Below are positions 2,438 to 4,274 of a stretch of 4,274 nucleotides of DNA, piece by piece. The notes beneath the pieces were generated by a model. That model was not told the DNA's origin and did not search any database. It saw only the letters and a program-made list of their open reading frames with translations. The stretch comes from a virus (lineage: Duplodnaviria; Heunggongvirae; Uroviricota; Caudoviricetes). The stretch's first letter is position 1. Each line of letters begins with the position of its first letter. The DNA lies in the IMG/VR virus record IMGVR_UViG_2737471869_000021, positions 1 to 4,274 of that record, one strand, 5' to 3'. Both the position numbers and the translations under genes were made by a program.

Positions 2438-2734
2438 TCAGTCATTACTGATAGCGCCATAGCGTGAGCGGTAATTACGCAGGCGCGGGTCGATATATTC
2501 AGGGAATTTGTCTATTGTCGCTTTTCGCAACGGTCTCATTGCTGTTTCGTTTGTTCGGTCCTTCTCCTGTTTTAGCGCGAGTTGTATATCGCGTCGGTAC
2601 ATCCGTTCTGCTTTTGTTTCTGGTGTCAGAGCAAGAAACGCGTCGAAATTGTTTTTGATATTTTCCAGCACCTCCGCCTTGGAGCTACCGGAGCAATTGC
2701 GCGGGTCATCCGCACCATACAGAGGCGCTGGCAT
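2438..2734 (-). CDS. abc2: Probable anti-RecBCD protein Abc2-like (98 aa)
   Basis: Clean ORF with ATG 2734..2732 and a good Shine-Dalgarno ('AAGGAttccattATG'). The size is close to the roughly 97 aa I recall for P22 Abc2, and it lies downstream of erf in transcription order. The N-terminus MPAPLYGADDPR... matches what I recall of Abc2-family proteins. This is an assignment from memory and synteny, not a search. Confidence 0.5.
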   Translation of the reverse strand: MPAPLYGADDPRNCSGSSKAEVLENIKNNFDAFLALTPETKAERMYRRDIQLALKQEKDRTNETAMRPLRKATIDKFPEYIDPRLRNYRSRYGAISND

Positions 2735-2757: not shown

Positions 2758-3141
2758 TTAGAAGGGAATTGAATCGTCGTATTCAGGATGATTTTGATGA
2801 TTGCTACTTTGTTGCTGTTGGCTGTTTCCTGAAGTTGCAAATCCAATCTTTGCATTCAGTAATTCAAGAGTGATTGATTGACCATTTTGCCCCTGATAAA
2901 CATCAACCCTGATGTTTTCTCCGGTAATTTCTACAATTCCACCTTCAACAAGAACACTACGGTAGTAATCCGCTTGCGCTCCCGGCTTGGCAAATACAAC
3001 GGCGCTGTAGTTTGTCCATTCTTTCTTTTTTGTCTGGCGATCGTAATACTGAACGCCAGCACGGATGTTGAATCCGATATTTTCCCCGGCCTGAAACTCT
3101 CTTGCGGGCTTGTTTAGTCTTACAGTAATCGAATGTGCCAT
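2758..3141 (-). CDS. ssb: Phage single-stranded-DNA-binding (SSB-like) protein, minimal OB-fold with C-terminal acidic tip DDSIPF (127 aa)
   Basis: The protein ends ...SGNSQQQQSSNHQNHPEYDDSIPF, a Gln-rich linker plus a D-D-x-I-P-F tip like the C-terminus of bacterial SSB (...DDDIPF). The core (KEWTNYSAVVFAKPGAQADYYRSVLVEGGIVEITGENIRVDVYQGQNGQSITLE) resembles the SSB OB-fold segment ([32 protein letters not shown]...). Its ATG (3141..3139) overlaps the erf TAA (3143..3141) as TAATG. Confidence 0.7.
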   Translation of the reverse strand: MAHSITVRLNKPAREFQAGENIGFNIRAGVQYYDRQTKKKEWTNYSAVVFAKPGAQADYYRSVLVEGGIVEITGENIRVDVYQGQNGQSITLELLNAKIGFATSGNSQQQQSSNHQNHPEYDDSIPF

Positions 3142-3746
3142 TAAGCAGCCGCTCCTTCTAATTCATCTCGTCTGATGTTGTAAACGTCCTGCGCTTTGTG
3201 CTGCTCCGGTGTGCCTTCGAGCATCTTCCACGCTTTGGCGAACGCCTGTTTAAGCTCTTCCACGTTGTTTTTCTGCATTGCTGCGTCAGTGAATGCTTTT
3301 AGAACCTGTTCAGGTGTAGGTGATGGTTTTGATTGCTTTGCTGCTGCGTTCTGCTGATGTTTATGCTCGTCTGTATCTGCATCTTTCGCATCATCAATGC
3401 CGAATAAACCATTGAGGCAATACTTGCGTGCATAAGAGCTTGTAGCTCCCGTAACTTGTGCAGAATCCATTCCTTTCTTGCTTTCTTCCTCTCGTGCAAG
3501 AGCGGTTGCCGTATGACTGTTTTCGCCATCGGTAATAGTTGCCGTGGCTTTCACGTAATACCGATCACCAATCAACACAACTTCATCGCTGATTGATAAA
3601 AACAGGCCATTCAGTAACGGTTTAACACCTTCAAGAATATCTTCGCAGCTTCTGTATTTATATTTACCGAATGAGTTGTAATGATTTTTTGGCGCGTTCA
3701 GATTCTCCTGAATAGCTGCCAGTCTTGCGTAAAATTCTTTGCTCAT
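3141..3746 (-). CDS. erf: Erf-family single-strand annealing recombinase (201 aa from ATG 3746)
   Basis: The N-terminus MSKEFYARLAAIQENLNAPKNHYNSFGKYKYRSCEDILEGVKPLLNGLFLSISDEVVLIGDRYYVKATATITDGENSH... closely matches P22 Erf as I recall it. The track's 211-aa form begins at a TTG (3776) that adds MGHVHSENKH; the ATG at 3746 is the likelier start. Confidence 0.85.
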   Translation of the reverse strand: MSKEFYARLAAIQENLNAPKNHYNSFGKYKYRSCEDILEGVKPLLNGLFLSISDEVVLIGDRYYVKATATITDGENSHTATALAREEESKKGMDSAQVTGATSSYARKYCLNGLFGIDDAKDADTDEHKHQQNAAAKQSKPSPTPEQVLKAFTDAAMQKNNVEELKQAFAKAWKMLEGTPEQHKAQDVYNIRRDELEGAAA

Positions 3747-3756
3747 ATGTTTGTTC

Positions 3757-3927
3757 TCAGAATGGACATGGCCCAAGTAAATAACGCTGATTTAATACTT
3801 CAGTCTTTGCCGCATTTAAAAATACGCGAACACCTTCACGATCTCCCTTCTGGCGATACATTAACGCCTGCTGCGTGTACATGCGTCTCTGTAACTTGCT
3901 CTCCTTCACTGTGGTTGCAAGTGACAT
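3757..3927 (-). CDS. Small protein (56 aa) immediately upstream of erf; positional candidate for an Arf-like accessory gene
   Basis: Manual translation: ATG 3927..3925 with a very strong Shine-Dalgarno ('cgaAGGAGatattcATG'). Protein MSLATTVKESKLQRRMYTQQALMYRQKGDREGVRVFLNAAKTEVLNQRYLLGPCPF, TGA at 3759..3757, 10 nt before the erf ATG. It is below the ORF-track cutoff. It overlaps ORF 3836..4006 out of frame by 92 nt. Confidence 0.45.
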   Translation of the reverse strand: MSLATTVKESKLQRRMYTQQALMYRQKGDREGVRVFLNAAKTEVLNQRYLLGPCPF

Positions 3928-4006
3928 GAATATCTCCTTCGTTACCGATTAAATCTTTCATCTGACGAATGAATTCTTCGTCTGACCAGTTATCTGTAAA
4001 ACTCAT
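3836..4006 (-). CDS. Alternative small ORF (56 aa) coupled to kil; conflicts with ORF 3757..3927
   Basis: ATG 4006..4004 overlaps the Kil-like TGA (4005..4003) as ATGA. Protein MSFTDNWSDEEFIRQMKDLIGNEGDIHVTCNHSEGEQVTETHVHAAGVNVSPEGRS. The N-terminal half looks protein-like; the C-terminal half is low-plausibility and lies in the overlap. The Shine-Dalgarno is weak. The track's 61-aa version starts at a GTG (4021) with no Shine-Dalgarno. Confidence 0.25.
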   Translation of the reverse strand: MSFTDNWSDEEFIRQMKDLIGNEGDIHVTCNHSEGEQVTETHVHAAGVNVSPEGRS

Positions 4007-4155
4007 TTCCTGCGATACCACGGAAGGTTGATAGCTGATTTCATCGCTTTATTTGCTTCAAACCACATTTTGGAATCACCAATAAATCTGGCTATTACTG
4101 CTTTGTTTTGTGCAGCACGAAGCATCTGATGATTTATGGCTATTTCATTGCGCAT
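4003..4155 (-). CDS. kil: Kil-like host cell-division inhibitory peptide (50 aa)
   Basis: Manual translation: ATG 4155..4153 with a GGAGG Shine-Dalgarno 4 nt upstream ('ctGGAGGcattATG'). Protein MRNEIAINHQMLRAAQNKAVIARFIGDSKMWFEANKAMKSAINLPWYRRK. It lies immediately downstream of cIII and overlaps its 3' end, matching the cIII-kil order in lambda and P22. The ...IA.FIGD..M..EA... core matches my recollection of lambda Kil, but this is unverified. Confidence 0.5.
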   Translation of the reverse strand: MRNEIAINHQMLRAAQNKAVIARFIGDSKMWFEANKAMKSAINLPWYRRK

Positions 4156-4274
4156 AATGCCTCCAGTTGTTTCTTTGCTGCTCTGATTAATTGTTTAACT
4201 CGGCGTGATAATTCAGATTCGTGCGGGTAGAAAGCGGACATGACGCCGCTACCCGCGAGCTGAAAGTGCATCAT
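4140..4274 (-). CDS. cIII: CIII-like regulatory protein (FtsH/HflB inhibitor), 44 aa; start codon at the window edge
   Basis: Manual translation from the ATG at 4274..4272 (a second ATG at 4271..4269): MMHFQLAGSGVMSAFYPHESELSRRVKQLIRAAKKQLEALCAMK, ending at TAG 4142..4140. It resembles lambda CIII (MQYAIAGWPVAGCPSESLLERITRKLRDGWKRL...), sharing the xAG segment and the P-x-ES-x-L...R..+.L amphipathic helix. The Shine-Dalgarno lies outside the window. Confidence 0.65.
   Translation of the reverse strand: MMHFQLAGSGVMSAFYPHESELSRRVKQLIRAAKKQLEALCAMK

Follow-up and report, generated by a model that had tools for sequence, protein, structure and literature searches.

Between kil and erf in this stretch of phage DNA lie two small open reading frames, ORF A and ORF B, that share 92 nt (3927..3836) in different frames. 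This overlap was read correctly in the first-pass annotation, which offered two explanations for it: either one of the frames is spurious, or the two form a genuine nested pair. The question raised by the locus is thus which of these frames is a gene, and whether the DNA that they share encodes two proteins at once. Neither explanation stands whole: two genuine genes are favoured by our analysis, and true dual coding is not. It is likely that these are two separate small genes, the upstream of which, ORF A, is coupled to kil and runs on into an independently translated ORF B; judged from sequence comparison, both ORFs are probably real genes.

The window, by which we mean the whole 4,274-nt stretch analysed here, carries on its minus strand the early-left (PL) operon of a lambdoid, HK022/HK97-like prophage (Table 1). 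CIII is annotated in HK97 and HK022 at the position aligned with the cIII gene of the window, and the annotated erf of HK97 is aligned with the erf gene in the same manner. The kil product matches Pfam Lambda_Kil (PF06301; E=2.7e-19, 68.8 bits against a cut-off of 27.6) and PHROG 2055 (E=2.4e-35), and PGAP names it 'host cell division inhibitory peptide Kil'. The erf product matches Pfam ERF (PF04404; E=3.2e-44, 151 bits against a cut-off of 25). The SSB-like gene downstream of erf is the counterpart of HK97 gp40, for which an SSB-like fold has been predicted (PMC12315714). An E-value-thresholded Rfam scan of the whole window returned nothing relevant, and promoter and terminator counts between positions 3500 and 4274 were at chance level.

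Table 1. Features of the kil-erf region and its neighbours in the window.
Feature	Position	Strand	Remarks
cIII	4274..4140	minus	44 aa; overlaps the start of kil; Pfam cIII, E=2e-30
kil	4155..4003	minus	50 aa; TGA stop 4005..4003 overlaps the ORF A ATG
ATGA stop/start	4003..4006	minus	kil stop and ORF A start, read from sequence
ORF A	4006..3836	minus	56 aa; ATG 4006..4004, stop 3838..3836
ORF A, constrained part	3929..4006	minus	codons 1-26, MSFTDNWSDEEFIRQMKDLIGNEGDI; weak Arf-like motif
ORF A, tail	3836..3928	minus	codons 27-56 and TGA stop; -1 frame of ORF B
ORF B Shine-Dalgarno (AAGGAG)	3934..3939	minus	inside ORF A codons 23-24 (E-G); 6 nt before the ORF B ATG
ORF B	3927..3757	minus	56 aa
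erf	3746..3141	minus	201 aa; ATG at 3746, 10 nt past the ORF B stop
SSB-like gene	3141..2758	minus	no Pfam match
abc2 homologue	2734..2438	minus	PF11043

What had been claimed beforehand about the signals of the two frames holds throughout. ORF A does start in an ATGA shared with the kil stop, and its Shine-Dalgarno is indeed weak, the sole candidate upstream being an AGGA 2 nt from the ATG. The Shine-Dalgarno of ORF B is near-consensus as described (AAGGAG with a 6-nt spacer), and the coordinates confirm that this ORF ends 10 nt before erf. Because 4006-3927 = 79, ORF B is in the +1 frame relative to ORF A. At 92 nt, their overlap is long compared with the 1-4 nt shared at the kil/ORF A (ATGA) and erf/SSB-like (ATG-over-TAA) junctions.

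The gene pair is not new, being already annotated in several model phages. Both ORFs are present in the GenBank annotations of HK022 (HK022_42.1 and HK022_42) and of Sf6 (genes 30 and 29), and each has a PHROG family to itself: ORF A matches PHROG 2123, the HK97 gp42.1 / Sf6 gp30 family, over residues 1-52 of a 52-position profile (E=6.3e-40), and ORF B matches PHROG 1723, the HK97 gp42 / Sf6 gp29 family, over residues 1-56 (E=9.6e-33). Proteins of HK022-type phages are 96-100% identical to those of the window and those of Sf6 80-90%; HK022 itself differs from the window by point substitutions only, and the kil-erf position and the 79-nt offset between the start codons are the same in HK022, HK97 and Sf6. 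Matches to the 501 bases around the pair occur in 118 phage records, the region is matched in 1114 of 5426 complete E. coli genomes (about one fifth), and a genome-collection scan with ORF B found six loci. In E. coli chromosomes PGAP annotates ORF B alone, as WP_000050554.1, and does not call ORF A. Both families carry the label 'recombinase' in RefSeq and PHROGs, which nothing that we examined supports. Our search of the literature on gp42/gp42.1 and on the Arf/Erf/kil overlap found nothing specific, and a 2025 survey of lambdoid recombination modules mentions Arf, not the ORF A/ORF B pair (PMC12315714).

More divergent relatives allow the two ORFs to be compared part by part. The layout of the window recurs in Enterobacter phage vB_Ecl_MII_001 and in 14 related viral contigs (L098-L112), with kil, an ATGA junction, an ORF A of 53-54 aa and an ORF B ATG placed 79 or 76 nt past that of ORF A. 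ORF B is full length in both the E. coli and the Enterobacter type and 55% identical between them. The first 26 residues of ORF A (MSFTDNWSDEEFIRQMKDLIGNEGDI in the E. coli type, MSIADTWSEDAFVRLMQDLIGSEGGL in the Enterobacter type) are alignable, and its tails (HVTCNHSEGEQVTETHVHAAGVNVSPEGRS and HAADNNNRREPESTPRDDDAGSAVALQG, respectively) barely so. Elsewhere the two ORFs occur apart. ORF B is found without ORF A in Salmonella phage S9-5-type contigs, preceded there by an unrelated 120-aa gene and an intergenic spacer, and in Erwinia phage vB_EhrS_59, in which the ORF B start shares an ATGA with the end of a different 49-aa ORF; as a homologue of ORF A this 49-aa ORF was rejected (hhalign probability 1.9%). 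The N-terminal module of ORF A is found without ORF B in HK140-type phages, as a 35-aa peptide (MSFTDNWSDEEFIRQMKEMLNQHKEQEKDDDSDSE) that has a different acidic ending, is ATGA-coupled to the preceding gene and overlaps the following one by ~20 nt. For polymorphism we used 118 viral contigs selected by a 29-nt DNA anchor in the A-only region, a choice blind to the overlap that replaces a set of near-identical loci ranked by ORF B identity and so biased toward ORF B. ORF A and ORF B are split in 105 of these contigs and fused in one (HK97); ten have a different ORF A variant of 35-36 aa without ORF B, and the remaining two are other indel variants.

The rival that survives best, although we consider it unlikely, holds that ORF B is the only gene of the pair: frame A would be open by chance, and the 79 nt that separate kil from ORF B would be an untranslated leader containing the ribosome-binding site of ORF B. 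PGAP's choice of ORF B alone in E. coli genomes, the poor Shine-Dalgarno of ORF A and the lack of a coding signature in its tail all agree with this, as does variation at the N-terminus, where the anchor-selected E. coli prophages have 15 nonsynonymous and 8 synonymous polymorphisms in codons 1-26 and one prophage allele has a stop at codon 8, so that constraint on these codons within E. coli prophages is only modest. Against it stands the comparison of divergent sequences, for which pN/pS was obtained from Nei-Gojobori counts on representative sequences, with ranges that span the comparisons within the Enterobacter type and between the E. coli and Enterobacter types. In the codon-aligned A-only region, pN/pS is 0.35-0.54 in frame A, and the controls are 1.27-1.33 in frame B and 0.85-0.98 in the third frame (in round figures, 0.35-0.5 against 1.0-1.3 in the other frames). 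Moreover, every indel in this region is in frame: 3 nt as the difference between clade subtypes, 15 nt as a deletion in Klebsiella phiKp_30, and 21 and 42 nt as tandem duplications. The ATGA junction before ORF A is kept in the Enterobacter-type clade, and also with two different genes upstream, in Klebsiella phiKp_30 and in HK140, and is a probable site of translational coupling from kil to ORF A. The first 26 residues alone still match PHROG 2123 (E=2e-18), and the N-terminal module, common to PHROGs 2123 and 17766, is joined to another acidic C-terminus in the HK140-type phages. AlphaFold2 models ORF A as a single helix (residues 9-20, pLDDT 70-80) followed by low-confidence coil. Conservation of codons 22-26 could come in part from the ribosome-binding site of ORF B that they contain.

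Granting that ORF A is probably a gene, the overlap could still be a case of genuine dual coding, the ORF A tail being a functional overprinted domain across all 92 nt. We hold this to be improbable, more so than a solitary ORF B. Within the overlap, pN/pS is 0.36-0.40 in frame B, a value that may tilt slightly toward ORF B conservation in the between-clade comparison because those loci were found by ORF B peptide patterns, 1.6-1.7 in frame A and ~0.9 in the third frame, which served as a control. In the B-only region the corresponding values are 0.11-0.24 for frame B and, as controls, 2.0-4.8 for frame A and ~0.9 for the third frame; frame A in the overlap thus resembles a non-coding alternative frame of ORF B, at the level of the off-frame controls. 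Polymorphism in the anchor-selected sample agrees: 12 changes in the overlap alter ORF A only, one alters ORF B only and five alter both, so that 12 of the 13 changes silent in a single frame are silent in ORF B, against a neutral share of 0.47 (one-sided binomial P ~9e-4). Nor is the synonymous divergence of ORF B lower in the overlap than in its B-only part. Inside the overlap only frame B is under purifying selection, and the pattern is not that of dual coding. The check proposed in the first-pass annotation, in which frame-specific conservation for just one ORF would have removed the other, therefore gives a split result: frame A is conserved only before the start codon of ORF B, and frame B alone is conserved within the overlap.

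We re-coded each ORF B protein synonymously, drawing codons from the usage of the window itself, and frame A stayed open for at least 80 nt past the ORF B start in 27-57% of re-codings and for at least the observed length in 9-35%. Because long openings are this frequent, the length of the tail is unremarkable in any one lineage, and the same simulation gave no significant avoidance of stop codons in the tail. The ORF A stop lies 32, 80, 86, 92 or 137 nt past the ORF B start depending on lineage, and arises from whichever pair of ORF B codons gives T+GA or T+AA; in the window the TGA is formed by the Arg30-Glu31 codons of ORF B (CGT GAA). One prophage allele (L073) truncates ORF A at codon 37 and leaves ORF B intact. 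An observation favourable to dual coding is that, one allele excepted, frame A is open for 80-137 nt into ORF B in the lineages that have ORF A and closes after 14 and 23 nt in the two that lack it. This early closure is suggestive, on a sample far too small to weigh as evidence; taking the lineages as independent gives a joint chance probability of ~0.05, and weak selection may act on tail length. The tail is also acidic and polar in all clades, as are the C-terminal parts of P22 Arf and of the HK140-type peptide. Set against these points are the absence of constraint described above, the variable and even truncated end of the tail, its chance-level length and its low model confidence (pLDDT 61, declining to 46 over its course). 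The 30-codon tail is an unconstrained run-on, most likely a by-product without a selected sequence, and the 'odd C-terminal half' that had been remarked on in ORF A is accounted for in this way, AlphaFold2 predicting disorder there as well. By the re-coding simulation, two open frames alone are not beyond chance; what is beyond chance is the frame-specific conservation of the first 26 codons of ORF A and of the whole of ORF B. The locus resembles the run-on overlaps of compact phage operons, in which the tail of one partner is unconstrained: no stop closes the upstream gene ahead of the downstream start codon, the upstream coding sequence harbours the ribosome-binding site of the downstream gene, and selection is detectable in one frame only within the overlap.

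A close homologue that merges the two frames had been named beforehand as a pointer to a sequencing frameshift. Such a homologue exists in HK97, and a sequencing error in the window is not indicated. Gp42.1 of HK97 is an 83-aa ORF that extends from the kil ATGA to the ORF B stop, and Gp42 is an in-frame internal start within it. Relative to the window, HK97 has two 1-nt insertions, between 3879/3878 and between 3873/3872, which join ORF A residues 1-43 to ORF B residues 17-56. Since HK97 is two bases longer than the consensus, its fused form is the derived state. A second fusion allele (P0051) has a 1-nt deletion, occurs in 36 contigs, and looks like an independent natural fusion. Fusion proteins in the databases are otherwise joined at assorted positions, nearly all are singleton clusters, and many come from Logan read-run or ENA metagenome assemblies; junctions scattered in this manner are the pattern expected from random indel errors. 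All fusions delete the first 16-18 residues of ORF B, including T6, E9, S10 and R15, which are invariant in a six-sequence alignment.

These fusions could be taken to mean that ribosomes undergo a programmed +1 (or -2) shift in the overlap, giving an A-B product of the HK97 Gp42.1 kind, and that the separate products are by-products. HK97 encodes exactly such a fusion as one ORF, P0051 is an independent instance, and an SD-like AGGGAG lies directly upstream of the TCG-TGA at which ORF A stops. The re-pairing that a +1 slip of the prfB type would need here, from TCG to CGU, is nevertheless unfavourable, and the E. coli-type and Enterobacter-type clades have no conserved slippery or stall motif in common, the synonymous sites of the overlap varying freely. 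ORF B has a consensus Shine-Dalgarno and an ATG in all clades, those that lack ORF A among them, and each ORF is found without the other; this separability, the Shine-Dalgarno of ORF B and the lack of a conserved shift site argue against programmed frameshifting. Genomic fusions are moreover rare (1 of the 118 anchor-selected contigs) and cost ORF B its invariant N-terminal columns. We therefore rate a programmed frameshift as very improbable. Least credible of all is that the window holds a sequencing or mutational frameshift of a single ~83-aa gene, as a pseudogene or an error, in keeping with the merged frame of HK97 and the many singleton proteins fused at assorted junctions, for the identical split occurs in HK022, Sf6 and dozens of independent prophage contigs, the region is matched in those 1114 complete E. 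coli genomes, the split persists in a clade at ~55% protein identity, HK97 with its two extra bases is derived, and singletons with assorted junctions are what random indel errors would give.

Having favoured two separate genes, we turn to what each might be. It had been thought that one of them corresponds to the arf gene of P22, which encodes 47 aa (MQHEFSDEEFIALISPEIEEE...) and occupies the kil-erf slot as ORF A does. P22 arf shares 11 nt with kil and 4 nt with erf, and ORF A likewise overlaps its neighbours, following kil directly with an ATGA overlap. ORF A and P22 Arf have in common a (F/W)SDEEFI motif near the N-terminus and an acidic composition, and the C-terminal two thirds of ORF A are unrelated to Arf. 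Pfam PF17585 (Phage_Arf) has no match at E<=10 in ORF A, ORF B, the HK97 fusion or the ORF A variants, while P22 Arf itself scores 121 bits. Matches at the level of profiles are marginal: PHROG 2445 (Arf) aligns with ORF A residues 5-26 at E=0.0059-0.045, and hhalign of the ORF A N-terminal module against an Arf profile gives 23% probability (E=9e-4, 17 columns). One public metagenome annotation does call an ORF A cluster 'accessory recombination function protein'. Arf aids recombination, and its molecular function is stated as unknown (PMC12315714). On these comparisons ORF A may be described as 'Arf-positioned, weakly Arf-like' and outside the Arf family; the proposed correspondence holds weakly for ORF A, by its slot and its SDEEFI motif, and fails for ORF B, which appears unrelated to Arf by sequence. 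P22 has no homologue of ORF B (tblastn, E<=0.01).

ORF B is strongly conserved. GAAGGAG(A/G)T upstream of its start is conserved in the E. coli-type and Enterobacter-type clades, and phages in which ORF A is missing upstream still have an SD-like GGAG before it, so that in every clade ORF B has a Shine-Dalgarno of its own. The RNA around this ribosome-binding site folds with modest stability only (z=-2.3), and the junction between ORF B and erf gives no stable fold (z=+0.6). AlphaFold2 models ORF B as a two-helix hairpin (helices 7-27 and 30-51, pLDDT 90.9), and a Foldseek search with this model against the PDB and BFVD found generic helical hairpins only, none at E<=0.001. A profile search of 1.84 billion representatives found 20 members of the family at E<=0.001; those aligned or inspected all belong to phages or prophages of enterobacteria or their relatives, and the homologue in the Erwinia phage is 46% identical. 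In a 14-sequence alignment S10, A21, E43, P55 and F56 are invariant, so the protein always ends in Pro-Phe, and the F-L-G just before is nearly invariant. A recombinase gene always follows ORF B at a distance of 7-13 nt, with an HNH gene inserted between the two in S9-5, and these recombinase genes represent three superfamilies: two divergent ERF types, Rad52_Rad22 (Sf6 gp28) and a Sak4-like AAA_24 ATPase. This fixed place before three unrelated recombinase families makes ORF B a reasonable candidate for an accessory of recombination or for interaction with the host. We infer that it acts independently of the recombinase core and most likely assists the recombination module as an accessory, its target being, for instance, a host factor or a shared partner. 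The erf gene is without a clear Shine-Dalgarno, and translation of ORF B may in addition feed ribosomes into this weakly initiated gene.

Taken together, these observations suggest how the locus would be read. Ribosomes that terminate on kil would reinitiate at the ATGA junction to translate ORF A, whose first ~26 residues would be the functional part and form a single amphipathic and acidic helix with the motif shared with Arf. Because ORF A has no stop before the ORF B start, such a ribosome would continue for 30 more codons, reading ORF B in its -1 frame, and end at the TGA within ORF B codons, leaving the tail as a by-product. ORF B would be initiated independently, from its near-consensus Shine-Dalgarno inside ORF A codons 23-24, and would serve as the fixed 'leader' gene of the recombinase slot, whether that slot holds an ERF, a Rad52-like or a Sak4-like AAA_24 recombinase.

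Annotation pipelines currently disagree about this region: PGAP calls only ORF B, the GenBank records of HK022 and Sf6 call both ORFs, and that of HK97 contains the fusion. Both ORFs should be annotated, the last 30 codons of ORF A should be marked as an unconstrained tail, and the label 'recombinase' should be dropped. A bolder proposal, to which we give little weight, makes ORF B a general accessory factor in the single-strand-annealing recombination of phages, able to cooperate with any recombinase core. Its partner might be the ~55-aa C-terminal module common to the ERF, Rad52-like and Sak4-like recombinases that follow ORF B or, alternatively, a host SSB-interacting protein contacted through the invariant C-terminal Pro-Phe-COOH of ORF B. 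If this were true, the ORF A helix would be the equivalent of Arf and act together with ORF B, and the natural fusions in HK97 and P0051 would be Rosetta-stone evidence for their partnership. ORF B is a very common and well-conserved small protein at the head of the recombinase slot in lambdoid phages, and the interest that remains lies in its role there.

Two independent natural alleles join the N-terminus of ORF A, the small frame following kil, to the C-terminal ~40 residues of ORF B, the overlapping frame that precedes erf. In HK97 (L001 995..1246) the fusion arises through two 1-nt insertions, and in a related database protein represented in 36 contigs (P0051) through a 1-nt deletion; residues 1 to 16-18 of ORF B are missing from both. 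Length variation in the N-terminal part of ORF A is in frame. A 21-nt unit at codons ~11-17 is tandemly duplicated in certain prophages of E. coli and Salmonella, whose ORF A product then contains EFIRQMK repeated two or three times (proteins P0024 and P0031), and Klebsiella phage phiKp_30 (L013 637..780) has a 15-nt deletion.

A terminator-like hairpin (Table) coincides with the ORF A stop codon, inside ORF B. The scan gave one site of this kind where chance alone predicts 0.5, and HK97 diverges from the window at the corresponding aligned position. Because the 82-aa ORF antisense to ORF B was unannotated in the related records examined, we set it aside as a chance ORF.

Table. Features in the window and the recombinase module at related loci.
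Feature	Position	Strand	Remark
Terminator-like hairpin	3825..3840	-	CGTGAA-GGTG-TTCGCG, then TATTTTTAAA
82-aa ORF	3681..3929	+	antisense to ORF B and the erf start
~55-aa recombinase module	~3314..3144	-	Erf C-terminus
~55-aa recombinase module	L005, L100, L112		in the recombinase that follows the ORF B homologue of each locus

The C-terminus of ORF B (3757..3774, - strand) reads ...FLGxxPF-COOH, a motif that is invariant across the ORF B family. Its neighbour, the 127-aa SSB-like protein, ends in ...EYDDSIPF (2758..2785, - strand), the canonical SSB tip. The ORF B tail is non-acidic, and its likeness to this tip is therefore loose. These sequences suggest that the ORF B C-terminus could interact with SSB-tip binding pockets.

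Recombinases encoded after ORF B homologues belong to three Pfam superfamilies (ERF, Rad52_Rad22 and AAA_24/Sak4-like), and common to them is a C-terminal module of ~55 aa with the consensus LK.F.D.A...EL...W..L.G...Y..R..EL..AA. The same module is also present at the C-terminus of P22 Erf (L006).

The gap between ORF B homologues and the recombinase gene is 7-13 nt in other clades, often with GAGG within it. In the window, no Shine-Dalgarno for erf is recognisable in the 10 nt after the ORF B stop, GAACAAACAT (3747..3756, - strand), which suggests that translation of ORF B may be needed for expression of the recombinase.
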